DNA from: a virus
Lineage: Duplodnaviria; Caudoviricetes
Strand: one strand, 5' to 3'
DNA: 64,000 nucleotides
Virus record (IMG/VR): IMGVR_UViG_3300028048_003161
A program made the position numbers and the translations under genes. The notes beneath the pieces were generated by a model that saw only the letters and a program-made list of their open reading frames with translations, did no database searches and was not told the DNA's origin. Below, one piece after another: positions 6,520 through 31,381 of the stretch. Numbering within the stretch: the first letter of the stretch is position 1; each line of letters opens with the position of its first letter.

Positions 6520-6609
6520 AATATTTGTAGTTAAGAAGTAAATATGTAGTACGTAGTCTTAATTACTCTACAAAATTTAGTGCGTGAGAAACGCAAGGAG
6601 GACAGTGCT

Positions 6610-6936: not shown

Positions 6937-7204
6937 GCCTCAATGTAGAAATAGGAGATGCAGGTCATTAAATCTTAAATTGACATTGTGTATGATTGAA
7001 ATTACATAAAACAAGGTAATCATTTATGGTTGTGATTGTCTTGGTATAAACCGACTAACAACATATGTGATTGAGATTGTAGACATTGGAAATTTTAAGG
7101 TTTATCCTTTAAGAAGAAAAATTGAATATTGTGGACTTCTGACATAACTAGGAAAGCAGAGTTGGTGACTGATTGAACAGTTTAAGCAGAGGTCAAAGCT
7201 GCGG

Positions 7205-7251
7205 AAAAAAGTAAGGGAACAGTACTTAATTGTATTGTTTCCTTATTTTTT
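7205..7251 (+). terminator. rho-independent terminator
   Basis: aaaaaagtaagggaacagtac...gtattgtttccttattttt. Confidence 0.65.
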
Positions 7252-7300
7252 GCATTAAAATAAAAATAAGGAAATTTATTTTAATTAGGAGTGTGGTAAA

Positions 7301-13161: not shown

Positions 13162-14085
13162 ATGGAAATGGCATTTGGTTTTTTCAAAGAAAAAGTTAGG
13201 CAGCTTGAAAAAATGGATCCTAACGACACTTCAGGAGTGAATTTAGCAAAGGAAACATCTGATAAAGCAGTTGAGATTATTAAAGAGCTGTCAGGTAGAG
13301 ATATAGACACAAAGGTAAAAGTAATAGACAACTTGATTGTGTTTACTAATGCAGCTGGTGGTGCTGGAGCATCTACAATAGCTACGAATGTAGCATATGA
13401 AGCTATTCAAAAGGGATTGAAAGTTGTGCTTTTAGACTTGAATTTACTTTGTCCTGTACAGCATACATATTTAGGAGTTGAGCAGCAAATGACAAAACCT
13501 GACTTGGTGGGATATTTACTTGGTCAGAACTCATTGAGTGATAGCATTGATACTTCTAATAAGATCAATTTGATTTTTGCAAACAACAGAACAATCAATG
13601 ATTTAATCAATTGTAATGATGCAATTGCAATTGAGAATTACAAAGACATGTTAACAAAGTTGAGGCAGTTTTATGATCTTGTAATTGTTGATTGTCCTAT
13701 GCGAATTGATGATATGCTCTGCAATACAACATTGTATTACGCAGATGCAATCTACATGGTTTGGGATGAGGGTGTTGGTTCTGTAATCAACACAGAGAAA
13801 TTAAGAAGGAACATGGCAGCAACTGGTATTGACAGTTTCACAAAAATGAGAGTCATTTTGAATAAGAGAACATCAATTCATTTTTCTGATTATCCATTGA
13901 CAAAAATGAATATTGAACTTATGGGAGTATTACCTTTCAGTGTTGATATCATTGATAACTCCTTAAGAGAGAGAATCTTCTGTGAAAAGGGTTCAAGTAG
14001 CAATGAGGAATCAAATGAGTTTGCACGTAAAATGATAGGTTTATCAAATAAGATACTTAGTATTGCAGGATATACAGGAAAGTAA
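13162..14085 (+). CDS. cpaE: CpaE/TadZ-like MinD/ParA-family protein with degenerate Walker A
   Basis: AAGGAGASTIA (no Lys), LLDL, YDLVIVDCP, VILNK; directly upstream of TadA. Confidence 0.75.
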   Translation: MEMAFGFFKEKVRQLEKMDPNDTSGVNLAKETSDKAVEIIKELSGRDIDTKVKVIDNLIVFTNAAGGAGASTIATNVAYEAIQKGLKVVLLDLNLLCPVQHTYLGVEQQMTKPDLVGYLLGQNSLSDSIDTSNKINLIFANNRTINDLINCNDAIAIENYKDMLTKLRQFYDLVIVDCPMRIDDMLCNTTLYYADAIYMVWDEGVGSVINTEKLRRNMAATGIDSFTKMRVILNKRTSIHFSDYPLTKMNIELMGVLPFSVDIIDNSLRERIFCEKGSSSNEESNEFARKMIGLSNKILSIAGYTGK

Positions 14086-15667: not shown

Positions 15668-16666
15668 ATGAGTTCATCATTATTTGCTAATATAGCAAGT
15701 GGAAACGGTGCAACGCCTATCACAATTATCTTCATCATCCTGTTAGCAATAATGTTGCTTGTGCAGATAACTAATCTGCCTATGATAGCATTGTTGCACA
15801 GAGGTTTAGGTTTACTGAAAACAGGGTTTGGTAAATTCATACATAAGAGAGAAGATAACTACCATAGAGATTTGGAGATAGGCAAGATAAATGAAAAGAG
15901 GACAAAGGTTAAATTGTATAAGTTCCTTAGCGAATTGATTATAGACCTTAACCTTTATTCCACAGGAATCTTACCATATGAGTTGTTGACAATGGTAGTT
16001 ATCATAGTCGCAGTGGTGGTTACAGTTATCTGCAAGATCTTGTTTGGATCAATCGCTATGACTTTTATAATGACACCTATCGCAATTATAGCAACATTCT
16101 GTGTAATGTATACTAAAGCAAATGTAGCTCATGATACTCGTATTGAATCAGTAATTGATGCAGAGAACATTATCTGTAATAACATTAAAATTGGTGTGGT
16201 TGCAGCTGTTAAAGATAGTATTAACGTTATACCTAAGAACATTAGACCTGCTTTTAGAGACTTCATTGACAATGTTGAGCAGAAAAACTATCATATCAAG
16301 ACAGCATTGTTAGAGTTGAATCAGCAGTTAGGAAGTGTAGCAGATGACTTCATAAAGAAATGTATTGTCTTTGAATTGGAGGAAGAGCATGGTATTGCAA
16401 ATATGTTTCAGGATGTTGTAGAGATCAACAACATCAATATGGAGTTTAGAACAGATATGAAACGTAGTTTCGAGGAAGTAAAAACACAGTTCATTACTGG
16501 TGTTAGTATGATACTCGTATTCCTGTTCGGTGTCATTGCTATTTATGATGTAGTCAGAAATTTCTATTTCAAGACAGCAATTGGAAATGCAATACTTGCA
16601 GCTGATGCTTTAATAATTGTTATTGAGTTTATGTACATTACATACTTAAGAGCAAAAGAGCTTTAA
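15668..16666 (+). CDS. tadB: TadB-like pilus platform membrane protein
   Basis: TM / TM pair / soluble T2SSF-like region / TM pair, immediately after tadA. Confidence 0.7.
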   Translation: MSSSLFANIASGNGATPITIIFIILLAIMLLVQITNLPMIALLHRGLGLLKTGFGKFIHKREDNYHRDLEIGKINEKRTKVKLYKFLSELIIDLNLYSTGILPYELLTMVVIIVAVVVTVICKILFGSIAMTFIMTPIAIIATFCVMYTKANVAHDTRIESVIDAENIICNNIKIGVVAAVKDSINVIPKNIRPAFRDFIDNVEQKNYHIKTALLELNQQLGSVADDFIKKCIVFELEEEHGIANMFQDVVEINNINMEFRTDMKRSFEEVKTQFITGVSMILVFLFGVIAIYDVVRNFYFKTAIGNAILAADALIIVIEFMYITYLRAKEL

Positions 16667-16674
16667 TAAAGGAG

Positions 16675-17733
16675 GTGAGAACATTGGATACAAAGAATGG
16701 TACAGCTGGTGGTGGGGAGATACTTCAGTATATTGGGAATAACAATGGTTCTTCATCACAAATGGATGAGGGAGTACTTAAACAATTTGCAATGTTACCT
16801 TGGGTGAGATTGATTGTTATTGCACTCATAATTGTGGCAGCATTTCTAATAATCATTAGGATGTTTAAGGTCAAGAATCCTCTAAGGGGTAAGGCTATCA
16901 CACATGAGTTAGATAACATGGACAAAATCAGAAAGCATGATGAGTCTATTGTTAGAGCAAACAGAATTATTTCAGCAATCACTAACCTTGTTGAGAGAAC
17001 ACCTTTTGCCTTGAGTAAGTCCTATATAGAGTATTGGAACTACAATTTATATAGGGCAAATGTAAGAATACCTGGCAAGGCAAGAGTAATGAAGGCAATA
17101 GAGTTTAATGCATTGGTTAAAGCTACTGAAGCTTTTGTTGTATTACTTGGACTCTTGGTATCAGTATTCTTCAATGGTCCTCTTGGTTTACTACTTATAA
17201 TTTCAGCAATAGTAATGTGCAATACATTTCCTATGATGATTGTAAGACAGACAGTAAAAGCAAAAGACATGGAAATTATTGAGAACTTTGCACAGTTCTA
17301 TTTGATGATACATTATGTATTATTAGCAAGTTCAGGTACTCCTATTAGTGGTACAATGAAGTCTTATGATAAGACAACTGATAGTGAGGAAATGCACAGG
17401 TTTGTTGACACATGTATTCATTATATTGATACATATGGTGAATATGAAGCTACAAACTATATTGCTAAACAATACAGAGAAATTCCTCAAGTTGGCAAGT
17501 TAATGAGATTGATCAGACAGGCTAACGAGGGTGGTGATGTAAGAGCAGAGCTTATTGGTTTTAGAAACGAGCTTCTTGAAGCAAAGAAGTACACACTTCA
17601 AAAACATAAAGAGAAGCTTGTAATGAGAGCACAACTCTCATTCAATATATTGTTGCCTATTTTGATTCAGGCAATCATAAGTGCAACTGCTATATATCTG
17701 CCAGATATTATGGGAGCAGCTAGTGTATTCTAG
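16675..17733 (+). CDS. tadC: TadC-like pilus platform membrane protein
   Basis: same topology, IRQA..GG...L motif and final TM, second platform gene. Confidence 0.7.
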   Translation: MRTLDTKNGTAGGGEILQYIGNNNGSSSQMDEGVLKQFAMLPWVRLIVIALIIVAAFLIIIRMFKVKNPLRGKAITHELDNMDKIRKHDESIVRANRIISAITNLVERTPFALSKSYIEYWNYNLYRANVRIPGKARVMKAIEFNALVKATEAFVVLLGLLVSVFFNGPLGLLLIISAIVMCNTFPMMIVRQTVKAKDMEIIENFAQFYLMIHYVLLASSGTPISGTMKSYDKTTDSEEMHRFVDTCIHYIDTYGEYEATNYIAKQYREIPQVGKLMRLIRQANEGGDVRAELIGFRNELLEAKKYTLQKHKEKLVMRAQLSFNILLPILIQAIISATAIYLPDIMGAASVF

Positions 17734-17802: not shown

Positions 17803-18075
17803 ATGAAAGTAAGTAAAATTTTCGTTGTCTTAATTACAGTCGTTGTTTGTGTTATTATTGGTGCCTTTGTTATCAATATCTTAATGCCAAACACAGTAAC
17901 ATCAGTGGTTGATACAGTTGAGAATCAGATTCAGCATGCAACTGGTATTTCGCTTGACCTGAATGGTAATGGTGTAGCAGGTGCATCTGGTAACAACATT
18001 GCTAAAATGAAGAGCAGTAACAAGGATAAGTCTAACTCAACTAGCAGTAGTAAGACAGTTGATGGTTTCCAGTAA
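17803..18075 (+). CDS. putative major pilin (Flp-position small protein)
   Basis: ~90 aa with N-terminal hydrophobic helix, strong GGAGG RBS, follows tadC, followed by strong hairpin; no G|xxxxE cleavage motif. Confidence 0.55.
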   Translation: MKVSKIFVVLITVVVCVIIGAFVINILMPNTVTSVVDTVENQIQHATGISLDLNGNGVAGASGNNIAKMKSSNKDKSNSTSSSKTVDGFQ

Positions 18076-18113
18076 ATCATTTAAGGAATGGTAACAATCG
18101 TAAAGTAAAATTA

Positions 18114-18146
18114 GGGGTACCTGGGACAATGGTCCCAGGTGCTTTT
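18114..18146 (+). terminator. GC-rich stem-loop after putative pilin gene
   Basis: ggggtacctgggac-aatg-gtcccaggtgctttt. Confidence 0.75.
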
Positions 18147-18163
18147 AGGTTTGGGAGGCAACA

Positions 18164-19036
18164 ATGGCAGAGAATGTTAAGTTTATATTTAAGTCACTGA
18201 TTAAAGTACCAATCTTTATACTTGTTGCATTCTTCATATTTAACATCTTTACTTTCTTTTTCATTTACTTCAAAATGTTGGGAATATCATATGTGGTTAT
18301 GCAAACAGCAGTAGAGAATAATTACTTGCCTCAACAGGAGTTAACAACACTCAATAAGTACATGAAAAATCTGAATAAGATTTCATATGTAGAGAATGCA
18401 CACGTAGTTGTAGATAATGATACATCAGGAGCAACATTATACAATGGTTCAGGAAATTACCTTGATGAAAATGGTAATGCAAAGGCTCTTAAGTCTGATG
18501 GACATAACTCAGTAACTCGTAGACAGTATGGAAATTATATTGTCACAGGTGTTTATTGTAAATACAGAATAATTTGGCCTCTGCAGTATGTCGAAACAAT
18601 GCATGACACTAATGCAGGTGTAGCTGGTACAAATAGTAATAATAACAATACAGTAGAAACAAGTAACACTACATTGGCAAATAGGAGAAGTGATTCAAAA
18701 CATGCAGTCTTGATACCAATTAAATTGGTTTATACAATACCTGGTTTGAAGTACTATCCTGATTTGGGTGTAGACTATACTAATAATGTATTTGACATAG
18801 ATGAGAATCCAGACATCAACGATGATGATATCAACAATGGCAATTGGGATGACATTGATGATGGATATGACGATGATGATGGAGACTATGTTGATAGGGA
18901 TACATCTGGGGACGAGAACTACAATGGAGATATATCAGATGGACTAGACGACAATTTGGATGGCGACGATGGCGACGACTTTGATAACGGTGATGACGGC
19001 GACTTTGGAGACCTTGACGACAGTGATTTTGAGTAA
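18164..19036 (+). CDS. TadE-like minor pilin with long Asp-rich tail
   Basis: N-terminal hydrophobic helix, position in tad operon, about 80 C-terminal residues dominated by D/G/N. Confidence 0.5.
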   Translation: MAENVKFIFKSLIKVPIFILVAFFIFNIFTFFFIYFKMLGISYVVMQTAVENNYLPQQELTTLNKYMKNLNKISYVENAHVVVDNDTSGATLYNGSGNYLDENGNAKALKSDGHNSVTRRQYGNYIVTGVYCKYRIIWPLQYVETMHDTNAGVAGTNSNNNNTVETSNTTLANRRSDSKHAVLIPIKLVYTIPGLKYYPDLGVDYTNNVFDIDENPDINDDDINNGNWDDIDDGYDDDDGDYVDRDTSGDENYNGDISDGLDDNLDGDDGDDFDNGDDGDFGDLDDSDFE

Positions 19037-19051
19037 TAAGGAGTAAAGAAT

Positions 19052-20299
19052 ATGACAGTAAAAACAATATTTAGGACTCTGATAGGTACAATAATCATTA
19101 TGGTTGTTGGGTCACTGCTTGTTGAGGTATTTAATATCTCTGTAATTTCTTTACAGATCACACAGTTATCAAAAGAGGCAGCCAAGCAAGCTTGTGAGTT
19201 ATTTTCACAGGAGTCATATAGACAGTTATCAAATGAAGACGAGACAGCTGTTTATGGTGGTATGTACAGTATGAATGATGTGAAAGCAGAAGATGGTCAT
19301 ACATACATATCTGGTAAATTTTATGGAGCACTCACAGATGATGCTGACAAGGATGCAAAAACTATATGGGCAAAGATTTATAAGAATAGTGACTTTGATA
19401 GTTTTTGCAGAGGTACCTTATCAACTAACAGTAGAGGAACAAAGTTTAGCATAGACTCAGGTATTCAGGCATTAACAAATTTACAGTTGCTCGATAGAGG
19501 AATATTTGGAGATACAACTCAATCAAGTACAGTAGATGAAGGTTGGGGTCATGATGATTATAGTGACGAGGCTCAGGTAGCTTCTGATAAAGCAAAAGCT
19601 AAGCAGTATGCAAATGAAATGTATACAGCAGTTAACTTGGGTGTGCCTTATATGGATGATGAGATACTCAATAAAATGTATCAGTGGAATTTAGCACAGT
19701 TACTTTCAAATTGTAATCCTGCTAACATTCATAAATCCGATGAGCCAACTGATCCTTCTAGCTATTACGTTGAGTTTAAGGGATTCAAGGTATTTTGTGA
19801 CAAGGCAAGAATAACAGAGTACAGATACAATGTGTTCAGCATTTTACCTAATACACCTTCAGAGTTGACAAATGCATTTAATGTTGGAGATTCACTTGAT
19901 TTGTATAATTTAACACATATTCAATATAATCCTAGCAGTGGTCAACTTGGTAATACAAATTTGAAAGAGCAGTTGGAAAAGAATGGAACTTCATTAGTTC
20001 AAGAGAGTGCTCCTTCATCATTTATAGGAGGTGCAGGTAGATTAAGTAATAGATATGACAATGCACTTGTAACTACAGTTAGTTTAAATTACAATGCACC
20101 TCTTACTTATGCAGGAATCACTCCAATTAAAAATATATTCAATTGGGTAAACAGCTATAGCGTTTCAGGTGTGGATAATGCAAGTAATTCACATTCAGGT
20201 GCAAAGTGGAATACCAGGGTTGCATATTTTGATGCTGATACAGCAGCAAGTGATGGATACTCTTCAACTGGAGAGTATGTATTTACTCTTATTAAGTAA
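19052..20299 (+). CDS. TadG-like minor pilin / tip protein
   Basis: N-terminal TM then LVE...Q..Q....AA..A pattern as in Tad N-terminal domains. Confidence 0.5.
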   Translation: MTVKTIFRTLIGTIIIMVVGSLLVEVFNISVISLQITQLSKEAAKQACELFSQESYRQLSNEDETAVYGGMYSMNDVKAEDGHTYISGKFYGALTDDADKDAKTIWAKIYKNSDFDSFCRGTLSTNSRGTKFSIDSGIQALTNLQLLDRGIFGDTTQSSTVDEGWGHDDYSDEAQVASDKAKAKQYANEMYTAVNLGVPYMDDEILNKMYQWNLAQLLSNCNPANIHKSDEPTDPSSYYVEFKGFKVFCDKARITEYRYNVFSILPNTPSELTNAFNVGDSLDLYNLTHIQYNPSSGQLGNTNLKEQLEKNGTSLVQESAPSSFIGGAGRLSNRYDNALVTTVSLNYNAPLTYAGITPIKNIFNWVNSYSVSGVDNASNSHSGAKWNTRVAYFDADTAASDGYSSTGEYVFTLIK

Positions 20300-20311
20300 A
20301 GGAGACAGTTT

Positions 20312-21178
20312 ATGGGTAATGAGAAAGAATTAGAAAATGAAGCTCTTGACTTTGATGTTGAAGAGAATACACTTGGAGATATGGAAGTTGCAGAGGAAAG
20401 TTTAGATGAGCAGACAGAAGAGGCAACACAGGACTTAGGTAGTACAGTTGATAATTCAGAAGAGACTAATGAAGTAGAAACTGACAGCACTAGTAATAAA
20501 AAAGATAAAAAGAAAAAGGAAAAGAAAGCTAAGGCTAATAAGAAAAAGACAGCTAAGGAAAGTGAAAATGCAGAAGAAAAACCTGTTGAGCAGGTTGAAG
20601 ATGTTGTGCTATACATCATAACTGATAGACATTTACCGAATATGATACAATACTATAGAGAAAGGGGTGTAAACGTATCAAATATTTTTGATAGCATAGA
20701 GGATGCCAGGTCAGCATTGATTTTGAATATTGAGAAATCAAGACTTGTAATTTTAGACACAGGAATGGGTCAGTTCTCAAATATGGGAACACGTAGACAA
20801 ATTATTGACCTCATTGGTATTAGTGATGAGGAAAACAGAATTTCTGTTTATTACACTGATAGTGTAATCAAGTCAGAGGTTGAGTATTCTGACGAGGTTA
20901 TGGGAAGAGAGATCAGTTGGCATAAGTATAGATCTACAGCTGATGTTATAGCACACATTTTGAAACATAAAAATGAGCATTATGTATTGAATTTCAACGC
21001 TGACAAAGATGGTTCAGACTCAAAACCAGTTTATATGGACAGACCTGGATTTAAGGTTGACGTTGAGAAAGTACCTGTAATTGGGACAATGGCTTTCACA
21101 TCTAAAGATGTTATGAGACATTTAGATGAGGAGAGTGCAGAAGTTAATCAATTAGAGGCATATGAAGTTCATATGTAA
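20312..21178 (+). CDS. hypothetical protein, acidic N-terminus plus possible pseudo-receiver domain
   Basis: VLYII...A...L......LVILD alpha/beta pattern. Confidence 0.5.
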   Translation: MGNEKELENEALDFDVEENTLGDMEVAEESLDEQTEEATQDLGSTVDNSEETNEVETDSTSNKKDKKKKEKKAKANKKKTAKESENAEEKPVEQVEDVVLYIITDRHLPNMIQYYRERGVNVSNIFDSIEDARSALILNIEKSRLVILDTGMGQFSNMGTRRQIIDLIGISDEENRISVYYTDSVIKSEVEYSDEVMGREISWHKYRSTADVIAHILKHKNEHYVLNFNADKDGSDSKPVYMDRPGFKVDVEKVPVIGTMAFTSKDVMRHLDEESAEVNQLEAYEVHM

Positions 21179-21207
21179 TAACTCATAATTTTAGGAGGGA
21201 ACAGATT

Positions 21208-21765
21208 ATGAGAAAGAAATTGACAAGTTTAATGTTGGTTCTTGCATTTGTAATTACTTCAATACTTGGAGTAATGGGTGGAACTACAGAGGTACAAGCA
21301 GAGGACTGCATACCTTTTAAGTCAGCTCACTCAATCAAAGTTGATGGAGTAATTTACAGGACAGCACCTTTACCTGATGGAGATGCAGAGAGTGTAGATT
21401 CAGACAAGGTTTATGGAGTTACAGCAATAGGTTGGATGCCTTACTCATGTGCGGATCAGAATGGACTTCTTAAATGTAAATTCTACATTGGTAAAGGAAA
21501 GCAGAGAACAGGATATGTACCTGTAAGCGATGTAGTAACAGACAGTCCTAAAAGATGGGCATTTAAGAGAAAAATAAGTGGCACAACAAATGTAGCAGCA
21601 CAGACATATAAAACAGATTATTCAGCATACAGAAAGTTAAAGGCAGACAAAGTGATAAGCACAGCTGGATTTGCTATGTATAATAGTAAAGCATATGTAG
21701 TATTTAAGGTGAAAAGGATTGGTAATTTACTCATAAACGTAAATGATATTAGCATTACTGGTTAA
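21208..21765 (+). CDS. secreted protein
   Basis: Sec signal ending VQA; possible SH3-like TGYVP segment. Confidence 0.65.
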   Translation: MRKKLTSLMLVLAFVITSILGVMGGTTEVQAEDCIPFKSAHSIKVDGVIYRTAPLPDGDAESVDSDKVYGVTAIGWMPYSCADQNGLLKCKFYIGKGKQRTGYVPVSDVVTDSPKRWAFKRKISGTTNVAAQTYKTDYSAYRKLKADKVISTAGFAMYNSKAYVVFKVKRIGNLLINVNDISITG

Positions 21766-21786
21766 TTATTAACCAGTGAGTAAAGA

Positions 21787-21826
21787 AAATAGACCTAGTA
21801 TTCAGAAATGGGTACTAGGTCTATTT
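21787..21826 (+). terminator. rho-independent terminator ending the tad operon
   Basis: aaatagacctagta...tactaggtctattt. Confidence 0.75.
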
Positions 21827-21985
21827 GCATGTAAATATAATAAGTAGTTATTTATTAAGTTGTTTGAAGTGACACATGAACATGTAATTGAATAAATTAA
21901 AAATGTGTAATTTATTATTGCGTTGTTTCAGACATCTAAATATAATAAATGTAAAAAATTATTTATTTAATGGAGGTAAATTAAA

Positions 21986-23338
21986 ATGAGTTTTGTAGCA
22001 GCTGATTTAGGTGCAAGCAGTACACGATACACTAGTGACAGTGGAAAAATCGATGTGTTGCCTAATAACATGAAAACACTGCCTGATATGAATGTATCAC
22101 TTATCATTCCTGACTCTGGAGACATTGAGAGTTGTTTAGAGGCTCAGATTACAAGAGATGGGCAGGATGCAATGGGATTCTTCCCTACAAATGTACTCAT
22201 GGGAATCATGGCAGAGAAACATCGTGGAATTGACGAAAGACCTTCAGTCAATACACACAAGCATAAGCAGAAAATCAACTATGTTTCAGCTATTATGGCA
22301 TGTGCAGTAAGTAAACTCAAGCATCCTGAGTTAGCTGAGCATGTAGACCTTTACTTAGCTACACCTCCTATTGAGGTTCATGCAGCTAAGGAGGCTTTTG
22401 CACAGGTACTTTGTGGAACTTACACAGTTTATTTTCCAAAGTATAACAATGGAGTAAGCGTGACATTTACTGTTGATTCAGTAAAATGTTATGCAGAGTC
22501 ATATATGGCTTCAGCAGCTTTCTTCTTCAATATGAATGGTACACCTAAGGAGGAGACAAGACAGTACTTAAGTGGTACAGTGCTTCACCTTGATATTGGT
22601 GCATCTACATCAGATCTGTCCATTACAAAGAATGGTAAGTTCCTTGATAAGTCAGGACAGACATATCGTATTGGAGGTAATGTGGCACGTGACAACCTGA
22701 TTGACCAGATCTGTCAGAAATTTGCTATTGATTTACCATTAGCAGATGCTGAAAAGGTCATGGCAGAGGGTAGGATGCAACAGGGTATGGGATTTGTAGA
22801 CGTAAGTGACCTTGTAATGGTTGCTAAGAGAGAATTAGCTCAGCAGTTAAATGAGTATCTTGATACATACTTCAAGAGGATTCAGATCCCTATTCAGATG
22901 GTAAATGCCATTGTTGTTTCTGGTGGTGGATCAATGCAGAGTCAGTATGCAACACCTGAAGGAGAGATGGTTAAGACATCTGAACCTTTAAGTTACTTTG
23001 TAACTCAGGAGTTACAGACATGGTCACCTGGAACAGCAGTAATTCCTTTTGGAGACAATGCTAGGTTTGCAAATGTCACAGGTTTGTTTATTCGCGCAAA
23101 GATTGATGAAATCAAGCGTAAACAGCAGGCAGCAGTTGCATCTCAGCCTGTAACACCTACAGTTCAAAGCGTTGCTCAGGGCATTGGACAGACACAGCAG
23201 GTACAGCAGGTAGTAAATAATGGGGCAGTTGCAGGAGCAGGTCAGACAGTAGGTCAGACAACACCAACATATACTGGAGCACCTGGACAGGTAATGCAGG
23301 ATAGACAGCCTGGACAGGAAGGACAGATTACACAGTAA
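21986..23338 (+). CDS. parM: ParM/StbA-family actin-like protein with Gln-rich tail
   Basis: actin motifs ADLGAS, AES, LDIGASTSD, VSGGG, FANVTGL. Confidence 0.85.
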   Translation: MSFVAADLGASSTRYTSDSGKIDVLPNNMKTLPDMNVSLIIPDSGDIESCLEAQITRDGQDAMGFFPTNVLMGIMAEKHRGIDERPSVNTHKHKQKINYVSAIMACAVSKLKHPELAEHVDLYLATPPIEVHAAKEAFAQVLCGTYTVYFPKYNNGVSVTFTVDSVKCYAESYMASAAFFFNMNGTPKEETRQYLSGTVLHLDIGASTSDLSITKNGKFLDKSGQTYRIGGNVARDNLIDQICQKFAIDLPLADAEKVMAEGRMQQGMGFVDVSDLVMVAKRELAQQLNEYLDTYFKRIQIPIQMVNAIVVSGGGSMQSQYATPEGEMVKTSEPLSYFVTQELQTWSPGTAVIPFGDNARFANVTGLFIRAKIDEIKRKQQAAVASQPVTPTVQSVAQGIGQTQQVQQVVNNGAVAGAGQTVGQTTPTYTGAPGQVMQDRQPGQEGQITQ

Positions 23339-23351
23339 AATGTAAATTAGT

Positions 23352-23390
23352 ACAGAGAACCACTAAGGCAGACATGGTGGTTCTCTGTTT
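23352..23390 (+). terminator. stem-loop after parM
   Basis: acagagaaccac...gtggttctctgttt. Confidence 0.7.
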
Positions 23391-23410
23391 ATGTCAGAGA
23401 GGGAAAGAAA

Positions 23411-26400
23411 ATGACTAATGAATCAATTAGTATAATCATTAAGGTTGGAAAAAAATCTAATATGAAATTTAGTCATAGCAAGGCTTATAGAGCACTAATA
23501 CCTGAAGATTTGGAGATATTGCATAGAAATCATCCTGATTGTCATTTGGCAATTATTGAGAACATTAAGGAAGATGAAGAGGATGCAGTAAGAAAGTTTA
23601 TTCAGTCGTTTGAGAGTGAAAGTGATGACAATAAAGTTTTGTTCTATATACCTGATGAAGATGATTTGGCAACATTAGGTTTAGCAGATGAACTTAATTT
23701 TGATATATACATGACACTTGAAGATATCTATTTTGCTATGAAAGACTTAGGATACAGTTTGGATGTAGCAGCAACACTGGATAGTAGAAGAGAACACTTC
23801 AAGGAAATGTCAAAAACAGATGATTTGGAGGGTGTCACAGATATCTTTGGTGGCATTGGAGAGGGTCAGGACAGCATTGATATAGATGTGGACAATGAGA
23901 CAGAAAATCAACATGAGGACTTTGGTGATTCAGACACTTCAGAGAAGCAAACTAGCAAGGTTAGTTTAGCAAAAGAGACATCAGAAGAAAATGAGACAGA
24001 CTTATTTGATGGTATGGGTTCATTTGAGGATGGACTTGATACAGCTGAAGAAAAAGAAGATAACACACAGGAAACAAAGGATGCGCAGGAAACAAAGAGT
24101 AGTACTTCAGAATTAAGTGAAGTAAACAGTGAAGAAATTGATAAGATTAGAACAGAATTAAGAGATACTAAGTATGATTATGGAGTAGCAGTTAAGGATG
24201 TTCAAGAGGCTAACAAAAGAATTGAGGACCTTGAGAGTGTAATTAAGGCACTTAAGGATGAAAAGAAAGACATTGTAGATAGATTTAATGCAATTAAGGA
24301 CAATGGAGAAGTATTTGATGATGCAGACTACAGTGAGTTAAAGAGAAAATTACAGCAGAGTGAAAGCAGTATTGAAGAATTAACTGCTGAATTAAATAAA
24401 GAGAAGTCAGAGGTTGAAAAACTTACTACAGACCTTAATGATAAGGTTGAACAGCTAAACGAGTTAAATAGTAAGGTTAAATCTGGTGAAATACATGCAG
24501 AAATAGTTGCAGACTATGAGAAGAAATTAAGTGAACTTTCAAATAAATACAAAGATACATTAGAGAAATTTGAGAATGAGCAGGGTAAGGTAAGTGAGAT
24601 TAGTGATAGTTCAAGTAAAGAACTTGAGGTAATGAGTTTAGACCTTACAAATGTAAAAAATGAGCGTGACAGGTTTAAGGGAGACATTGATAGACTTAAC
24701 AAACAGCTAACGAACAGTGAAGAAAAAGTAGAAAGCATTACAAAAGAAAGAGATGATCTTAAGAAAAAGGTTGAGTCACTTGAGAAAGAGAAGAGTGACG
24801 TAACAAAAGAAAGAGATGATCTTAAAGTTGAATGTGATGGACTTAAGAGTGAGAGAGATACACTCAAGATAAATGCAGGAGACCTTGAGACAGCTAAGGA
24901 AAACTTAACAGAAAGAGTGGAGTCACTTGAGAAAGAAAAGAGTGACCTTGAGAAAAAGAAGTCAGACATTGAGGGAAAACAAGCAGGTTTAAGAAGCGAG
25001 AAAGAAAAGCTTATAAATGAAAAGAGAGAACTTGCTAATGATAAGATCAGACTTACAAATGAAAAAATTACACTTGAGGATGAGATAAAAGAACTTAAGG
25101 ATAGACAGAAGAGCCTTGAAGCAGAGAAGAAAGACCTTGAGAATAAGAAAAACAGCCTTGCAGAAAAAGTAAATCAACTTGAGAGTTTGGAGGGTACCTC
25201 TGAAAAGAATGAAGAGTCACTCAATGAGAAAATTGAAACCTTGGAAAAAGAAAAGAGTGACCTTGAAGAAAAGATTAAGACATTTGAAAGTGAAAAGGAA
25301 CAGTTAAATAAAAAAGTAAGTACAGCTGAAGATAAAGCAGATGCAGCTGAATTTGCTAAATTTGAGGTTGAGGAAACAGCAACAGCACTTAAAAAGAGTG
25401 TTGAGACACTTGACAAAAAATTAAATGACAAGCAGAGTGAAATTGGACAGCTGAAAGCAACAATAACTAATTTGAACTTACAGTTAGATGAGTGTAGGGC
25501 AGACTTAAGTTTAGCAACTGAAGCAAACAGTAAGATTCTGGAGCAGCAGGGAGATGCAGATAGCCAGTATAAAAGTGAGATTGACAGTCTTAAACAGCAG
25601 ATCAGTGGTTTAGAGACTAAACTTAAATTAACAAATGAGCAGTTGGAACAGAAGGAACAGCAGTACAGCGTGCTTGTTGCACAGCAGGCAGATAAATCAG
25701 CAGGAGCAAATGCATTAGCTAGCACAAATCAGACACTGGAAATTGTCAATAAAACATTGTCAGAACAGTTAAGCGTAGCAAATAAAGAAATAAATGCACT
25801 TAAAAACAGTAAGACTAAACTCACAAGTGAAGTTAAGACTTATAGGGATAGATGTAATCAGTTAGATAGTGCATTGAAAAATACAGTTAAGGCACTTGGG
25901 AGTGGGGCAAGCAACACAGAGAAAAAAGAGCAGACAAGTGATAGTGGTAGCAGTAGCATGGGAGGTCAATATCTGACAGTTAAACCTATCAACTATACAG
26001 GGTCAGCTAAGATCATACCAGTATTTGGTTGTGGAGGTACAGGTATAACAACAGCAGCTGTGTCATTGGCAAGTAAAATCTGCTTAACATCAAATGTACT
26101 ATACATTGATATGGACATTACACAAGCATCAGCTGATGCATGGTTTAGTCAGACACCTTTATGTGGTGGTCTCAGTGGTCTTGGTTTAATGGACATTGAG
26201 TGTACAGGACTGGGTATCTTCTATGAAAAAGGGTTTAACATTTTCAATAATAATTTGGACAAGATTATTAAGAATGTTGAACATACAAAAGGTGGAGGAA
26301 CAGACTATTTAAGTGGATTGATACATAGAGTGGATGATGAAAGAATTGCGAATGCAGACTATACGTCTTTGTTTAATAGACTTGGAGAGAAATATACATA

Positions 26401-26761
26401 CATTGTTATTGACCTTGGTAGAGTGGGAAATAGCAGAGTCAATGATAGTTTGATCAAAGCAATTTTTGATATATCAGCTACAAATATGGCAGTTGTACCT
26501 CAGAATTATTTTAGTATACGTAATTTTATTCTTAAAGTCAGTGAGGCTAAATTAGATATGCGTAAGTTAAAGTTGATAATCAATATGTGTACAGCGACTG
26601 CACTTGACAGGAGAACTAAACAGGCATTAACAAGTAAATCAATTTCAAAGTATGCCATGATTTTGTTAGATCAGAACATGGTGTGTATAAAAGATACATT
26701 CATACATAACAAATTGAACAGAGATAAATTTGCAGCTTTTGTAAATTCAGACCTGTTTTAG
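23411..26761 (+). CDS. 1116-aa protein: N-terminal globular domain, acidic linker, ~600-aa coiled coil, C-terminal MinD/ParA-like domain
   Basis: heptad K/E/L region with internal repeats (VESLEKEKSD, KERDDLK); C-terminal FGCGGTGITTAA, VLYIDMD, YIVIDLG, LIIN. Confidence 0.8.
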   Translation: MTNESISIIIKVGKKSNMKFSHSKAYRALIPEDLEILHRNHPDCHLAIIENIKEDEEDAVRKFIQSFESESDDNKVLFYIPDEDDLATLGLADELNFDIYMTLEDIYFAMKDLGYSLDVAATLDSRREHFKEMSKTDDLEGVTDIFGGIGEGQDSIDIDVDNETENQHEDFGDSDTSEKQTSKVSLAKETSEENETDLFDGMGSFEDGLDTAEEKEDNTQETKDAQETKSSTSELSEVNSEEIDKIRTELRDTKYDYGVAVKDVQEANKRIEDLESVIKALKDEKKDIVDRFNAIKDNGEVFDDADYSELKRKLQQSESSIEELTAELNKEKSEVEKLTTDLNDKVEQLNELNSKVKSGEIHAEIVADYEKKLSELSNKYKDTLEKFENEQGKVSEISDSSSKELEVMSLDLTNVKNERDRFKGDIDRLNKQLTNSEEKVESITKERDDLKKKVESLEKEKSDVTKERDDLKVECDGLKSERDTLKINAGDLETAKENLTERVESLEKEKSDLEKKKSDIEGKQAGLRSEKEKLINEKRELANDKIRLTNEKITLEDEIKELKDRQKSLEAEKKDLENKKNSLAEKVNQLESLEGTSEKNEESLNEKIETLEKEKSDLEEKIKTFESEKEQLNKKVSTAEDKADAAEFAKFEVEETATALKKSVETLDKKLNDKQSEIGQLKATITNLNLQLDECRADLSLATEANSKILEQQGDADSQYKSEIDSLKQQISGLETKLKLTNEQLEQKEQQYSVLVAQQADKSAGANALASTNQTLEIVNKTLSEQLSVANKEINALKNSKTKLTSEVKTYRDRCNQLDSALKNTVKALGSGASNTEKKEQTSDSGSSSMGGQYLTVKPINYTGSAKIIPVFGCGGTGITTAAVSLASKICLTSNVLYIDMDITQASADAWFSQTPLCGGLSGLGLMDIECTGLGIFYEKGFNIFNNNLDKIIKNVEHTKGGGTDYLSGLIHRVDDERIANADYTSLFNRLGEKYTYIVIDLGRVGNSRVNDSLIKAIFDISATNMAVVPQNYFSIRNFILKVSEAKLDMRKLKLIINMCTATALDRRTKQALTSKSISKYAMILLDQNMVCIKDTFIHNKLNRDKFAAFVNSDLF

Positions 26762-26784
26762 TTTAGGAAGGAGATAACAGAGAA

Positions 26785-27621
26785 ATGGGTACACGTAGTA
26801 TTAGATTTGGTTCACAGCTGACATTTGATGAGGACAAAGAGAAAGATATTATTGACACTATTGATACATTGAATTCATCTCATAAAATGGGTCAGTTCAT
26901 GTCTAATTTGATTAGACTTGCATTTGATAATCCTGAAATACTTAGGGTTGGTGCAGATGGTTTAGAGAAGCAGGCAATGCTTCAGCAGGTGGAAAGCAGC
27001 GGTATGTCAGTTAACAGACAGCGGTTTATGTCTGAAGTTACATCAGAGATTTCTGATATGAAAAAGAAAGTTGATGAGGTGTACAATATGGTGTTTAAGT
27101 TGTATACATTGGCTTTAATGAATAAGCATTTGGAAATTGAAAATAAATCAGACAATTCATTAAGGGCAACATTTGTATTAGAAAGACAGCTTAGACAATT
27201 ACAAGATTCACTTGGTGTAAATATAAGTGATGCAGTGTATGAGTCTGATAAGGTCGCTGACGTTCATGTAAGAGCAGAGGATTGTTTAGAGTATATCATT
27301 GAGACATACGATGGAATCATTGATGAAATGAAACAGGCAATTGCAGTAGGACAGCAGCCACAGGTAGTTGTTCAGCAGGCAGTAGGAAATACAGGAGTTG
27401 CTGGAAACAATATGGTAGTTGGCAGTACAGAGGCAATTAGATCAGTAGAAACTGTAGGAAATACAGGGGCAGTTGAGACACAAGCAGTTGTGAATGATGC
27501 AAGCACAGCAAATACAAGTACAAGCACAGCAGTTCAAACCGAAACACCACCTGAAGAGGAAATAATTGACTTTGGGGATACAGATGATATCTTGGATGCA
27601 ATGAACTTCTTTGATGATTAA
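26785..27621 (+). CDS. ParR-like ribbon-helix-helix adaptor with coiled coil and acidic tail
   Basis: N-terminal QLTFDE.KEKDII..I......MGQFMSNLIR.A fits RHH; near parM. Confidence 0.5.
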   Translation: MGTRSIRFGSQLTFDEDKEKDIIDTIDTLNSSHKMGQFMSNLIRLAFDNPEILRVGADGLEKQAMLQQVESSGMSVNRQRFMSEVTSEISDMKKKVDEVYNMVFKLYTLALMNKHLEIENKSDNSLRATFVLERQLRQLQDSLGVNISDAVYESDKVADVHVRAEDCLEYIIETYDGIIDEMKQAIAVGQQPQVVVQQAVGNTGVAGNNMVVGSTEAIRSVETVGNTGAVETQAVVNDASTANTSTSTAVQTETPPEEEIIDFGDTDDILDAMNFFDD

Positions 27622-27648
27622 AGGATGAGACATGGAGGATTTAGGGAA

Positions 27649-28839
27649 ATGACATTTGATAAGTTATTAGGTTTATTGGAGGAAAATGAATTACATGAGT
27701 TGGTTGACTTTATGAAGTCAATGATACGTCTTGATGAGTATTCAGAGACACCTTATCTGATAAATCAGACATTGAAATTATTGTCAGATGACAGTCCTTT
27801 GTATAACCTTGTCACTGATGGAAATAAAAGAGCACTATGTATAATGTTACAGAGATACTATGAGAATTGTTTCGACTACTCACTTGGAGATGATGAGATG
27901 GAGGACAAGTTGAAATATGGAAAGATCATGGTATATAAGATTTGTGCAGCAAATGGTTTGAGATATGCAACTGAAAAAGAGGTTGAACTTGGTGTCAAGG
28001 GTTTACAAGAAGAGCCTATTTATCCCGCTACACAGGAAACATATGAAATGCTTTGTTTATTACAGTGGACTTTAACAGGTTCTGCTTATTATTTCAGACA
28101 GGCTGGCTACAAATTAGAGTATGGAGATAATAGAGAAGTTAAGAATACATTTTATGAAATGGTTCAAATGTGTGCAGAAAAACTAAACAACTTGTTTGAG
28201 TGGATTAAGGACTCTGGTAGAGTGGAAAAAGCACTTCGTATCATGGCTAAAATGAAAAGGAACAAGGGATATAAATATGCTAGCTATGAAAAAGATGAAG
28301 TGACAGAGGATATTCCAATCAAACAAATTGTTTATAATATTTGCAAGACATTTCCTAGAGGGAGTGAGAATCCTGAATACAGGAGGGCTTTAGCGATAGC
28401 ACTTAATAACTACAATAATAAAAAGAGAATGACCGTTATGGAAGTTTCTTTTCTACGTACTGTTTATGAGAAATTTGCAGTAGATAGGACAGCACATAAG
28501 GAGATGGCAGAGAAAGAGGCACAGGCTCAAGTAGATGTGCAGTTGAAAGAGGAATGTCAGGCACTGTTAGATGCTAGAAATACACGAGATATTGATTCTC
28601 AACACTTTTGTTATAAGATAATTGACACATTAAAAAGAAATGGTTACACTAGATGTTCTGCAAAACAACGAAAAATTATTGAGTCGGCCTTGCAAGACAT
28701 TGGATATGACAAGGATAAAAAGAAGACTAACATTGTGGAACCTAAGGTTGAAATCTTATCTGATGATATGATAGACGCTTCACTTGGTACATTGGCAAGT
28801 GCAGTGAACATGGGATTGTTTGATGACTTGGATGAATAA
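27649..28839 (+). CDS. hypothetical protein
   Basis: long ORF in operon, GGAGG RBS. Confidence 0.7.
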   Translation: MTFDKLLGLLEENELHELVDFMKSMIRLDEYSETPYLINQTLKLLSDDSPLYNLVTDGNKRALCIMLQRYYENCFDYSLGDDEMEDKLKYGKIMVYKICAANGLRYATEKEVELGVKGLQEEPIYPATQETYEMLCLLQWTLTGSAYYFRQAGYKLEYGDNREVKNTFYEMVQMCAEKLNNLFEWIKDSGRVEKALRIMAKMKRNKGYKYASYEKDEVTEDIPIKQIVYNICKTFPRGSENPEYRRALAIALNNYNNKKRMTVMEVSFLRTVYEKFAVDRTAHKEMAEKEAQAQVDVQLKEECQALLDARNTRDIDSQHFCYKIIDTLKRNGYTRCSAKQRKIIESALQDIGYDKDKKKTNIVEPKVEILSDDMIDASLGTLASAVNMGLFDDLDE

Positions 28840-30430: not shown

Positions 30431-30463
30431 TTAGACAGGTTATAAATTTGGTTGGAGGATACT

Positions 30464-31381
30464 ATGAAAATACATTTGATTTTTGATTTTATGCATATCT
30501 ATTACAAGTACTTTTTCAGAAAGGGTTTAAAGAGACTTTCTGCTCCGATTGATTGGAATGGTACTGTAATTGAGAAAGACACTACTTTGATTTTTCATCC
30601 TTTGAGTGATATTGAATCACAGAGAAGAAGTTTTGAGTCACAAGGCAATGATGTGACAGTATCAGTTTGTTTTGATAGTAAGTCACACAGAAATGATAGT
30701 GAGGACTCTGATTATAAGTCAGGTAGAGAACACAGACTTTCTGAAGAGGATATTAAAAACATTGATTATATTAAAGAGAGATTGGCGATTGCTGGACATA
30801 ATACATACAAGTTAGATGGATTTGAGGCAGATGATTTAGTAAATTACATTTGTAATAAATACAAAGATCAGTATGATTATACAGTCATCTTTACAAATGA
30901 TAAAGACTTGATTGTGAATGTGTGTGACAATGTGATTGTTATGAGATACAAGAGCGTTGATGGTGGTTATAATCCTGTAAGACGTGACAATTATGAGTCA
31001 TACTTGGAGCCAGAGTTCAAGGTGTTCATTCCTTACAATGCATTAGGTTTATACCTTGCAACAGTGGGAGATAAGTCAGATCACATTAAGGGCATTAACA
31101 AGTTTGGACCTGTAGCGTTTAAGAAATTGATTACAAAAGTTGCAGCAAAGAATGACGTTAACTGGTCAGAATGCGGAGATTATCACAAGGCATTTGAAGT
31201 AGCTCAAATGTGCAAGGAGTTTTTAACTGATGAACAGTATCAGGATATGATGGACAGCTTTGCATTAGTTGCTAACCTTAAAGTAGAGGATGGGTGGTTA
31301 GAGGCACCTGAAAGAAAATCTACAAGGGAAATGAGAGAAGATGCTTATGGTGGATTAAGGATGATGACTTTAATTCCTTAA
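30464..31381 (+). CDS. stand-alone 5'-3' exonuclease / flap endonuclease (Pol I N-terminal-like)
   Basis: FD, YKSGR, EADD, NDKD, GDKSDHIKGI..FGP (H3TH) motifs. Confidence 0.9.
   Translation: MKIHLIFDFMHIYYKYFFRKGLKRLSAPIDWNGTVIEKDTTLIFHPLSDIESQRRSFESQGNDVTVSVCFDSKSHRNDSEDSDYKSGREHRLSEEDIKNIDYIKERLAIAGHNTYKLDGFEADDLVNYICNKYKDQYDYTVIFTNDKDLIVNVCDNVIVMRYKSVDGGYNPVRRDNYESYLEPEFKVFIPYNALGLYLATVGDKSDHIKGINKFGPVAFKKLITKVAAKNDVNWSECGDYHKAFEVAQMCKEFLTDEQYQDMMDSFALVANLKVEDGWLEAPERKSTREMREDAYGGLRMMTLIP

Follow-up and report, generated by a model that had tools for sequence, protein, structure and literature searches.

The window analyzed here, a stretch of 64,000 nt, comes from a giant (~450–500 kb) gut bacterial element that is plasmid-like and carries an actin-type DNA-segregation pair. 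This parent element is coded on one strand, is rich in orphans and paralogues and is most likely extrachromosomal and derived from gut Bacillota. It belongs to a family of uncultured giant gut, rumen-type and bioreactor elements, which is tied to the pXO16 type of one-strand-coding plasmid. Three genes and a hairpin were found exactly where a preliminary description of the sequence had placed them (Table 1). The genes encode an actin-like ATPase (ALP), a large protein of 1116 aa, referred to below as the rod, and an adaptor-like protein of 278 aa. Intergenic gaps are short and, judging from the ORF list, the genes located 3′ of the large gene are coupled.

Table 1. Features of the three-gene module and its surroundings, with positions in the window.
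Feature	Position	Strand	Evidence or remark
RecJ/DHH gene	upstream of module		
Perfect 14-bp inverted repeat, terminator-like	21787..21826	+	after upstream 185-aa gene
Candidate sigma-70-type promoter of ALP gene	21918..21946	+	TTGCGT, 17 nt spacer, TATAAT; read by eye
Actin-like ATPase (ALP, ParM/StbA-type), 450 aa	21986..23338	+	Pfam, phrog, motifs, hhalign
Hairpin, 12-bp perfect stem, then TTTAT	23352..23388	+	repeat search, folding
Rod gene, 1116 aa	23411..26761	+	
Rod: N-terminal conserved domain, aa 1–130	23411..23800	+	alignment
Rod: acidic linker, aa 131–240	23801..24130	+	composition, motif reading
Rod: continuous heptad coiled coil, aa ~241–850	24131..25960	+	periodicity, family matches
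Rod: C-terminal MinD/ParA-fold domain, P-loop without Lys	26006..26758	+	structure prediction, fold comparison
Adaptor-like protein, 278 aa	26785..27621	+	AF2 model, alignment, docking
Helical protein, 404 aa	27625..28839	+	starts 3 nt after adaptor stop
Three co-oriented conserved genes: 211 aa, 306 aa, 5′-3′ exonuclease/FEN 309 aa	28891..31381	+	

The inverted repeat located after the 185-aa gene parts the module from the upstream genes. The CATnTAAATATAATAA box of the candidate ALP promoter has a second copy 105 bp upstream, at 21828–21843. For the hairpin that separates the ALP gene from the large gene, the folding energy is −22.7 kcal/mol (z −5.1). A hairpin was present at the equivalent position in all eight related loci; the sequences of these hairpins are unrelated and a run of U comes next in most, not all, of them. 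This hairpin reads as an attenuator of the intrinsic-terminator type set between the two genes; the stretch from it to the large gene is too short to hold a promoter. Its conserved position suggests that it probably keeps the levels of rod and adaptor below that of the filament subunit. We did not detect any iteron or parC-like repeat array at 21766–21985 or elsewhere in the operon, nor any repeat array ahead of the ALP gene in seven related loci; a centromere may lie farther away.

The first gene had been described as parM-like, and our searches agree with this assignment. The protein matches Pfam ALP_N above the cutoff (27.5 vs. 26.3 bits) and phrog_691, a “partition protein” (E = 1.8e-16). 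We scored the nucleotide motifs of the actin fold as phosphate 1 (DxGxxxxR/K), phosphate 2 (DxGxxTxD) and adenosine (GGG), and all were intact: residues D7-G9-R14, D203-G205-T208-D210 and S312-G313-G314-G315, respectively, were invariant across 11 homologues. The ParM/StbA protein of pXO16 aligns with the ALP over 338 columns (hhalign, 99.4%), and, among annotated relatives, gp506 of the 497-kb Bacillus phage G comes next. The core of the protein (residues 1–380) is followed by a Gln/Val/Thr-rich tail. The Gln-rich tail noted in the preliminary description is thus present but it is not a constant feature, since it is variable and missing in several homologues.

The 278-aa protein had been described as an RHH protein. 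Its first 50 residues were modelled as a β-α-α unit (strand, helix and helix at residues 2–48; AF2 monomer, pLDDT 50), an RHH-like arrangement, but no match to an RHH family was found by Pfam or PDB profile searches. Residues 60–187 form long helices and residues 188–257 a disordered Q/V/T-rich linker. The protein ends in a conserved acidic helix (residues 258–278) in which D262, F263, F275 and F276 are invariant. In complex predictions, this tail docked on the ALP with a median ipSAE of 0.62 against 0.00 for the best control. Among solved complexes, 58 of 80 attained this mark, as did 2 of the 110 mismatched pairs; the calibration left out three-chain jobs and user-supplied alignments. The docking runs share at least 45% of their contacts and the pLDDT of the partner is at least 46. 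When the ALP was swapped out and the ParA-like domain of the rod was kept, the score fell to 0.00, which indicates that the tail goes to the ALP and not to the ParA-like domain. The predicted contacts involve tail residues 261–277 and ALP residues 177–187, 214–219 and 369–380. Based on the topology of the actin fold, the latter would correspond to the connect-1 helix, the IIA hairpin and the C-terminal helix, i.e., the IA/IIA cleft. The predictor's familiarity with solved complexes of the ParM–ParR type may account for part of this docking signal. As predicted, the docking of the tail is a relation of the ParM/ParR type, and it supports the proposal that the two outer genes form a ParM/ParR-like pair.

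The architecture reported for the large protein (N-terminal domain, acidic linker, coiled coil of ~600 aa and C-terminal domain) was recovered from composition, periodicity and predicted fold. The alignment of the N-terminal domain shows five invariant residues (K11, G13, R27, A28 and E50) and suggests alternating strands and helices. No family match was obtained for this domain with Pfam, PDB profiles or hhalign. The acidic linker, which is probably disordered, contains 32% D+E over residues ~130–240 and presents D-I/L-F-G/D motifs at residues 144 and 197. Residues 235–850 show one coherent periodicity peak at 3.51 residues and not a single proline; at ~0.15 nm per residue, we estimate that the rod would measure ~90 nm if extended. 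The coiled-coil families that match the rod all scored below their curated cutoffs, with the exception of CENP-F_leu_zip (37.7 vs. 34.5 bits). We rejected an SMC/Rad50 identity: the NCBIfam matches cover the coiled coil only (e.g., 68.7 bits vs. a cutoff of 567), the end domains are not ABC halves and there is no hinge or proline break.

The C-terminal 267 aa were predicted to fold with a mean pLDDT of 95.5 and, as the preliminary description had proposed, the fold is that of MinD/ParA. The best comparisons were to FlhG (4rz3; Z = 21.0, rmsd 2.6, 221 residues), ParA (3ea0; Z = 20.7) and MinD (3q9l; Z = 19.8), giving overall Z ~20–21 over ~220 residues with rmsd 2.6–3.0. The Walker A position reads GCGGTGITT, without Lys (family consensus GSGSxGxTT), and the deviant Walker A motif KGGxGK[ST] is absent from the domain. 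Because both the signature Lys and the P-loop Lys are missing, the domain is best kept out of the class of active ParA/MinD ATPases. Other positions are retained (numbered within the 267-aa segment): D51 and D53 of a switch-I-like DxD are invariant in the closer set of homologues, the Walker B residue D152 is invariant in 47 sequences, and N209 is conserved. An alignment with Borrelia PF-32 places D51/D53 and D152 at the DMD and IVID positions.

The synteny of the three genes, a prediction of the preliminary description, was found to be conserved. The triplet is kept in 17 of 19 metagenomic loci, all on giant contigs (200–505 kb), with the large gene located between the ALP and adaptor genes and identities of 30–96% for its C-terminal domain. 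The two divergent loci (L023 and L024) kept the rod gene with no detectable ALP or adaptor within 6 kb. The family defined by the rod C-terminal domain comprises 239 representative clusters at 50% identity; among the 150 members listed, most are 600–1300 aa long with the domain at the C-terminus and the shorter ones look fragmentary. The triplet is embedded in a larger colinear block, and at least ten neighboring genes hold their order in the same loci. The 404-aa protein is conserved at the equivalent position in 17 loci; profile searches yielded no family match for it, and its acidic C-terminal tail, ending in GLFDD, resembles the tail of the adaptor. The three co-oriented genes ending with the 5′-3′ exonuclease form the end of the conserved block. 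Because the whole ten-gene neighborhood is colinear, conserved adjacency alone is no proof that the rod works with the ALP.

A counterpart of the module is found on pXO16 (pBTHD789-1, NC_018516) of Bacillus thuringiensis, a low-copy 350-kb conjugative plasmid present at about one copy per chromosome, coded on one strand, rich in orphans and suggested to be phage-like in nature (PMC6199540). The ALP gene (BTF1_RS29905) is followed by RS29900 and RS29895. RS29900 encodes 583 aa, with an N-terminal domain, an acidic linker with a DLF motif, a coiled coil and an eroded ParA-like C-terminal domain, and RS29895 encodes 269 aa, with a β-α-α start and an acidic C-terminal tail. The two loci share the order ALP, rod and ~270-aa adaptor, a DHH/RecJ-like gene upstream and the type of replicon. 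In contrast, the rod of pXO16 is half as long, the glycine-rich P-loop of its C-terminal domain is entirely lost, and none of the genes within 20 kb, most of them for unnamed hypothetical proteins, bears an annotation as Tad, pilus or T2SSE ATPase. Sequence similarity of rod and adaptor to their pXO16 counterparts is marginal, and their homology is based on architecture and weak profile matches (91% over 48 columns; 14%, E = 0.0019).

These results suggest that the locus is a type II-like (actin-driven) module for DNA partition or positioning made of three conserved proteins, the third being a rod-shaped anchor or regulator; we assign this reading a probability of roughly 0.55. It builds directly on gene order, folds, motif states, conservation and the in silico docking of the tail, from which we infer DNA binding, filament formation and everything that concerns the binding partners of the rod. 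The ALP would form an ATP-dependent filament. The 278-aa protein would be a ParR-like adaptor: its N-terminal β-α-α region would bind the DNA of the element as a dimer, and its acidic amphipathic C-terminal helix would slot into the cleft that separates ALP subdomains IA and IIA. The 1116-aa protein would act as an accessory component shaped like a rod, with ~90 nm of heptad coiled coil in dimeric form, the N-terminal α/β domain and acidic linker at one end and a catalytically dead ParA/MinD-fold domain at the other. Its role would be to anchor, space or regulate the ALP–adaptor–DNA complex; filament ends or cargo might, for instance, be fastened to the nucleoid, to the pole or to a second copy. 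More tentatively, such modules might represent a novel class of partition machines, actin-driven and with three components, on very large replicons of Bacillota. In that case, the 90-nm coiled coil would keep the dead ParA/MinD domain permanently dimeric, and this domain would anchor the ALP spindle on, or space it along, the nucleoid, the pole or a sister copy. The acidic D-I/L-F motifs of the rod linker and of the 404-aa protein would vie with the adaptor tail for binding to the ALP cleft, and the resulting system would mix the partition logic of type I with that of type II.

Alternatively, the ALP system could be phage-like or linked to replication instead of partition, moving replicating DNA to a membrane site or organizing an intracellular compartment, with the rod as a scaffold. 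The AlpC/AlpA pair of prophage CGP3 reportedly moves the DNA of the replicating element to a membrane site. The relationship of the ALP to a protein of phage G is consistent with this possibility, as are the 5′-3′ exonuclease located downstream in the operon, the RecJ/DHH gene found upstream both here and on pXO16, and a one-strand-coding, orphan- and paralogue-rich content like that of pXO16, with its suggested phage-like nature (PMC6199540). However, annotation searches revealed no virion genes within the window, and searches of a phage collection and of IMG/VR returned no match. Moreover, experiments show pXO16 to be a conjugative plasmid kept at about one copy per chromosome (PMC6199540), which fits a need for partition. 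We consider a phage-like or replication-linked role unlikely.

It is also improbable that the rod is functionally unrelated to the ALP pair and is simply a backbone gene in a family of strictly colinear elements. The colinearity of at least ten neighboring genes and the two loci with a rod gene but no ALP nearby speak for this reading. The three genes nevertheless occur in this order on pXO16 too, amid different flanking genes, and here they share a single transcription unit whose attenuator is conserved in position. The D-I/L-F-G/D motif of the rod linker also resembles the ALP-docking tail, although this is suggestive only.

The preliminary description had further reported a Tad pilus operon next to the module. 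We verified a T2SSE/CpaF-like ATPase gene and a MinD-like (CpaE-like) gene in a Tad-like locus ~6–10 kb upstream, and a CpaF/TadA-like ATPase and a MinD-like gene are also found upstream in related loci, but the match to CpaB is weak (E = 0.086) and TadB and TadC lack Pfam support, leaving this locus only partly verifiable. CpaE/TadZ proteins combine an atypical receiver domain with an atypical MinD/ParA domain. The large protein shares with them a MinD/ParA fold in which the P-loop Lys is replaced, a separate N-terminal domain and a Tad-like ATPase in the vicinity, and it had been proposed to be a stretched second TadZ that tethers actin-moved DNA to a Tad-like pilus or DNA-transfer site. In line with this, the C-terminal domain aligns with TadZ (3fkq; Z = 18.7) and its profile matches a Response_reg+MinD protein (hhalign, 93%). 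TadZ, however, falls slightly below FlhG, MinD and ParA in the same comparison, and no pairwise similarity was found to the element's own CpaE-like protein, a separate gene that already adjoins the ATPase. Relative to the Walker A-like consensus of TadZ, K/RGGxGxS/T (bioRxiv 10.64898/2026.07.08.737194), the domain retains GGxGxT and has lost the leading K/R (Cys here, Ser in the family consensus). Linker and coiled coil also insert ~700 residues between the two domains, and the N-terminal domain is not recognizable as a receiver: it scored 0.7% against a true receiver (hhalign), and its weak atlas leads to CheY-like folds (0.79–0.81) are at chance level. The Tad-like genes of the gut elements are simply part of the long colinear block, and with no Tad, pilus or T2SSE gene annotated near the triplet of pXO16, we found no evidence for a tether to a pilus or transfer site and regard this reading as very doubtful. 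Overall, the gene layout, the hairpin and the architecture of the large protein held up, as did the ParM/ParR-like outer pair, the MinD/ParA C-terminal domain and the conserved triplet, whereas the RHH fold and the full Tad operon were not confirmed and the TadZ/pilus tether found no support.

Type II ParMRC systems consist of two adjacent genes, as in ParM/ParR/parC of plasmid R1, pSK41 and Alp7A/Alp7R of pLS20, and the prevailing view of plasmid segregation of the actin type is that of a minimal machine with two proteins. Read as a partition module, the locus resembles these systems in its actin-like ATPase with intact nucleotide motifs, its β-α-α adaptor with a C-terminal peptide predicted into the IA/IIA cleft of the ATPase, and its large, probably low-copy replicon. 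It differs from them by the conserved 1116-aa coiled-coil/pseudo-ParA gene between the pair, by a much longer adaptor (278 aa), whose middle part is helical and whose disordered linker is long, and by a terminator-like hairpin after the ALP gene. It also differs in that no centromere repeat array was found next to the genes. We found no description in the literature of a coiled-coil third component for actin-type systems. Precedents for a three-protein partition system are TubY of type III TubZRC (PMC7762940) and KfrA of IncP-1/IncU plasmids (PMC7821693), plasmid coiled-coil proteins that accompany an NTPase and a centromere-binding protein; unlike the rod, both bear DNA-binding heads (HTH) and no fusion to a ParA/MinD fold. 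The presence of a conserved third protein between the pair on replicons of 350–500 kb suggests that very large low-copy elements need an additional anchoring or regulating part. An equivalent layout is present on pXO16, a plasmid amenable to culture and manipulation in Bacillus thuringiensis, which makes the idea of a third component directly testable.

Nearly all coding in the window lies on the + strand, and G>C skew is strong. The three open reading frames named in the preliminary description proved exact in their boundaries (see table). The first product scores 27.5 bits against Pfam ALP_N (cutoff 26.3), falls slightly under the cutoff for MreB-like_C, and matches phrog_691 'partition protein' (E = 1.8e-16). 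Eleven homologues from related loci show no variation in its phosphate-1, phosphate-2 and adenosine motifs. Judged by its sequence, this 450-aa product is an actin-like ATPase (ALP). The glutamine-rich tail that had been noticed is present in the window and in some homologues but is missing from others. The hairpin reported after this gene was found, with a folding energy of -22.7 kcal/mol (z = -5.1). Each of the eight loci examined has a hairpin in this position; the sequences are unrelated and a run of U follows most of them. Between the hairpin and the start codon of the next gene there is only a ribosome-binding site, so the genes downstream must rely on read-through from the ALP promoter region, where a candidate promoter can be read from the sequence.

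Coordinates of the features discussed
Sequence	Feature	Position	Strand	Remarks
Window	RecJ-like DHH nuclease	10560-12233
Window	cpaB candidate	12268-13113
Window	MinD/CpaE-like protein	13162-14085
Window	tadB/tadC candidates	15668-17733
Window	Terminator-like repeat	21787-21826	+	Precedes candidate ALP promoter
Window	Candidate promoter	21918-21946	+	TTGCGT-17-TATAAT; 5' of ALP gene
Window	ALP gene	21986-23338	+	450 aa
Window	Hairpin	23352-23388	+	Perfect 12-bp stem, then TTTAT; between ALP and rod genes
Window	Rod gene	23411-26761	+	1116 aa
Window	First D-I/L-F-G/D motif	23834-23851	+	Rod aa 142-147
Window	Second D-I/L-F-G/D motif	23993-24010	+	Rod aa 195-200
Window	Adaptor gene	26785-27621	+	278 aa
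Window	404-aa protein gene	27625-28839	+
Window	5'-3' exonuclease	30452-31381
Window	DNA polymerase fragment-like protein	48761-50362		phrog_17
L023	Divergent rod-family gene	4048-6756
L024	Divergent rod-family gene	4108-6756
L028 (pXO16)	Gene run, single direction	17936-25530		DHH/RecJ-like, ParM/StbA, 583-aa rod-like, 269-aa adaptor-like, 691-aa
L029 (B. subtilis 136-kb plasmid NZ_CP061871)	ALP-to-ATPase run	4647-10389		Related ALP, four small unknown genes, T2SS/T4P/T4SS-family ATPase

The second gene encodes the large protein, which we call the rod protein. Its last 267 residues (the C-domain), folded with a 47-row alignment, modelled as a MinD/ParA fold (mean pLDDT 95.5, pTM 0.93), in agreement with the earlier proposal of a MinD/ParA-like domain whose loop, GCGGTGITT, has no P-loop lysine. 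The model matched FlhG (4rz3; Z = 21.0, rmsd 2.6, 221 residues), ParA (3ea0; Z = 20.7), MinD (3q9l; Z = 19.8) and also FleN. The best solved sequence relative was the Borrelia PF-32 ParA (E = 5.7e-4), and in this alignment GCGGTGITT falls on the KGGVGKST position. The family consensus is GSGSxGxTT, which indicates that both Walker A lysines are gone throughout the rod family. A switch-I-like DxD, the Walker B aspartate D152 (invariant in 47 sequences) and N209 are retained. We infer that the C-domain may be a ParA/MinD-fold pseudo-ATPase, possibly still holding nucleotide.

Members of the family share a conserved N-domain (residues 1-130 of the rod protein), in which K11, G13, R27, A28 and E50 are invariant in the alignment. 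Neither Pfam nor a PDB profile search gave a match for it, nor did hhalign against a genuine receiver domain; its look-alikes in the structure atlas were CheY-like folds with scores of 0.79-0.81, which is chance level. Asp and Glu make up 32% of the linker that follows (residues 131-240). Two D-I/L-F-G/D motifs lie in this linker, and in many family members the first comes directly after the N-domain. From about residue 241 to 850, the protein shows a single coherent hydrophobic periodicity of 3.51 residues, whose power is 8.0 across 615 residues versus 1.3-3.1 (mostly about 2-3) per 150-residue segment, indicating that the register is nearly unbroken. This proline-free region is, from its periodicity, a canonical heptad coiled coil, and its length would be about 90 nm if extended, estimated at about 0.15 nm per residue.

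The third product, the adaptor, has no family match. Its homologues share a conserved N-terminus, a helical middle, a variable Q/V/T-rich linker and a conserved acidic C-terminal peptide in which D262, F263, F275 and F276 are invariant. A poor AF2 monomer model (pLDDT 50) places strands at residues 2-6 and 10-14 and helices at 20-32 and 34-48, then long helices up to residue 187; a disordered stretch follows, and residues 266-275 form a terminal helix. This predicted N-terminus fits an RHH-type adaptor without proving one. The earlier assignment to RHH proteins is not confirmed: PDB and Pfam profile searches returned no RHH family.

Docking of the adaptor was predicted with three chains. Adaptor residues 230-278 were the scored partner; the other two chains were ALP residues 1-385 and the ParA-like domain. 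The complex scored 0.59, 0.62 and 0.64, with contact agreement of at least 45% and partner pLDDT of at least 46, whereas three controls all scored 0.00. The score mark was reached in 58 of 80 solved complexes and in 2 of 110 mismatched pairs, a calibration set from which a three-chain job differs. Because the control that swapped the ALP alone fell to 0.00, the tail is predicted to dock on the ALP and not on the ParA-like domain. The predicted contacts join tail residues 261-277 to ALP residues 177-187 (the conserved FFFNMNG stretch), 214-219 and 369-380; read from the standard motif order of the actin fold, this site would be the cleft between subdomains IA and IIA. The same cleft is the site of ParR on ParM and of arcadin-2 on crenactin. 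The prediction supports binding of the adaptor tail to the ALP, although it does not show it, and part of the docking result may reflect model memory of structures like these two. The proposal that the outer genes are ParM- and ParR-like is therefore supported in silico.

The C-domain served as query for an exhaustive HMMER search, which recovered 239 representative clusters; for 117 of these, E was 1e-30 or lower. Among the 150 members listed, most are 600-1300 aa long and have the domain at their extreme C-terminus; shorter members appear fragment-like. Close relatives are carried on contigs of 450-505 kb. Loci for synteny came from a single scan each of genomes and metagenomes, which together returned one Lachnospiraceae MAG contig and 19 metagenome loci. 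These include a 464,735-bp human-gut contig at 96% identity and contigs of 204-400 kb from various sources, bioreactor metagenomes among them. The gene order ALP-rod-adaptor, suggested earlier as a point to check, is kept in 17 of the 19 metagenome loci, with C-domain identities of 30-96%. Conserved order extends to at least ten neighbouring genes, including three upstream and those for the 404-aa, 211-aa and 306-aa proteins and the 5'-3' exonuclease. With colinearity this wide, adjacency of the triplet inside the gut family is weak evidence by itself. In the two most divergent members (882-902 aa, on 204-263-kb contigs L023 and L024), the rod gene sits between FtsH-like protease and family A DNA polymerase (PolA-like) genes, and neither ALP nor adaptor was detected within 6 kb. 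Two Acidobacteria loci (L006 and L025) were rejected as members, being ordinary receiver+MinD proteins. The locus had no blastn match in phage and plasmid collections, and a peptide-pattern scan of IMG/VR yielded no relative. Inocle elements (32% GC, about 350 kb, oral; PMC12340149) and Hodor megaplasmids (44-47% GC, 211-389 kb, Rep_3/ParAB/T4SS; PMC12934698) were both rejected on size, GC and gene content.

The preliminary description had read the rod protein as a second, stretched TadZ-like molecule that tethers DNA to a pilus. The P-loop lysine is likewise lost in the TadZ Walker A-like consensus, K/RGGxGxS/T (bioRxiv 10.64898/2026.07.08.737194), and the C-domain profile aligns with a Response_reg+MinD protein (hhalign 93%). 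However, the C-domain has also lost the leading K/R of the TadZ motif, TadZ itself (3fkq; Z = 18.7) ranks behind FlhG, ParA and MinD as a structural match, the C-domain has no similarity to the CpaE-like protein that the element itself encodes, and the N-domain is not recognisable as a receiver. The upstream Tad operon could be verified only in part: the T2SSE ATPase (FlaI, VirB11 and TadA-type matches; 26-29% tblastn identity to CpaF) and the MinD-like protein stand, but the cpaB candidate matches RcpC/CpaB weakly (E = 0.086) and the tadB/tadC candidates have neither Pfam support nor a T2SSF match. The TadZ reading thus lacks support. The MinD/CpaE-like protein, which adjoins the ATPase, has lost both Walker A lysines (loop N-A-A-G-G-A-G-A-S-T); because its MinD match begins at residue 57, it has no N-terminal receiver domain.

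As an observation, the preliminary description is largely right. The best explanation, to which we assign a probability of about 0.55, is that the triplet would form a partition or positioning module of the actin type, in which a rod-shaped pseudo-ParA protein is accessory. The large protein is conserved as a third component. A repeat array that could represent a centromere is absent from the 220 bp upstream of the ALP gene, from the rest of the operon and from the region upstream of the ALP in seven related loci; a centromere may lie in repeats farther away. The 404-aa, 211-aa and 306-aa neighbours have no family match. The 404-aa protein, translationally coupled to the adaptor, bears a conserved acidic tail (SD-DID-SL...GLFDD), and some related loci encode a 595-667-aa protein in its place; comparison with the fused 595-691-aa forms and with a 691-aa protein of plasmid pXO16 did not show homology. 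Both this tail and the D-I/L-F-G/D motif of the rod resemble the ALP-docking tail of the adaptor, and by this resemblance they may compete for the same ALP cleft; the 404-aa protein is thus a possible second cargo or regulator. Elsewhere in the window, the exonuclease, the RecJ-like DHH nuclease and the polymerase-like protein may be parts of an autonomous replication/repair set.

Annotated relatives of the ALP were sought by tblastn against annotated collections, and two came up, in Bacillus phage G and on B. thuringiensis plasmids. In Bacillus phage G (497 kb), gene 506, annotated 'partition protein', is followed by a 129-aa gene; the arrangement is the plain two-gene one. On a B. subtilis plasmid (L029), a related ALP is separated by small genes from a secretion-family ATPase; this enzyme is only remotely like that of the window (E = 5e-4) and is not evidence for a conserved ALP-Tad link. 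The other tblastn relative is the ParM/StbA gene on 349.6-kb B. thuringiensis plasmids, among them NC_018516 (pBTHD789-1), which is pXO16 (PMC6199540). The ALP family aligns with the pXO16 ParM/StbA protein at 99.4% probability over 338 columns (hhalign). The product of the next pXO16 gene, 583 aa long, has a small N-domain, then an acidic linker in which the first D-I/L-F-G/D motif of the rod recurs as G-D-L-F-E-E-F, and after this a coiled coil and a C-domain. This C-domain aligns with the rod family over its Walker B region (hhalign 91%, 48 columns), its own P-loop being wholly eroded. The 269-aa protein that follows starts with a strand-helix-helix ending in N-P-E, as in the adaptor (hhalign E = 0.0019, low probability), and its C-terminal tail is acidic and amphipathic. 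As in the window, a DHH/RecJ-like gene lies upstream. No gene within 20 kb of this triplet is annotated as Tad, pilus or T2SSE ATPase, most neighbours being unnamed hypothetical genes, which leaves the proposed pilus tether unsupported. The layout indicates that the triplet recurs beyond the colinear gut family, without annotated Tad neighbours, and pXO16 makes the module approachable by experiment. This plasmid is described as a 350-kb, low-copy conjugative element with all CDS in one orientation, few homologues and many paralogues (PMC6199540). The element of the window has the same global traits, and pXO16-type plasmids may have a distant Clostridia counterpart in its gut family.
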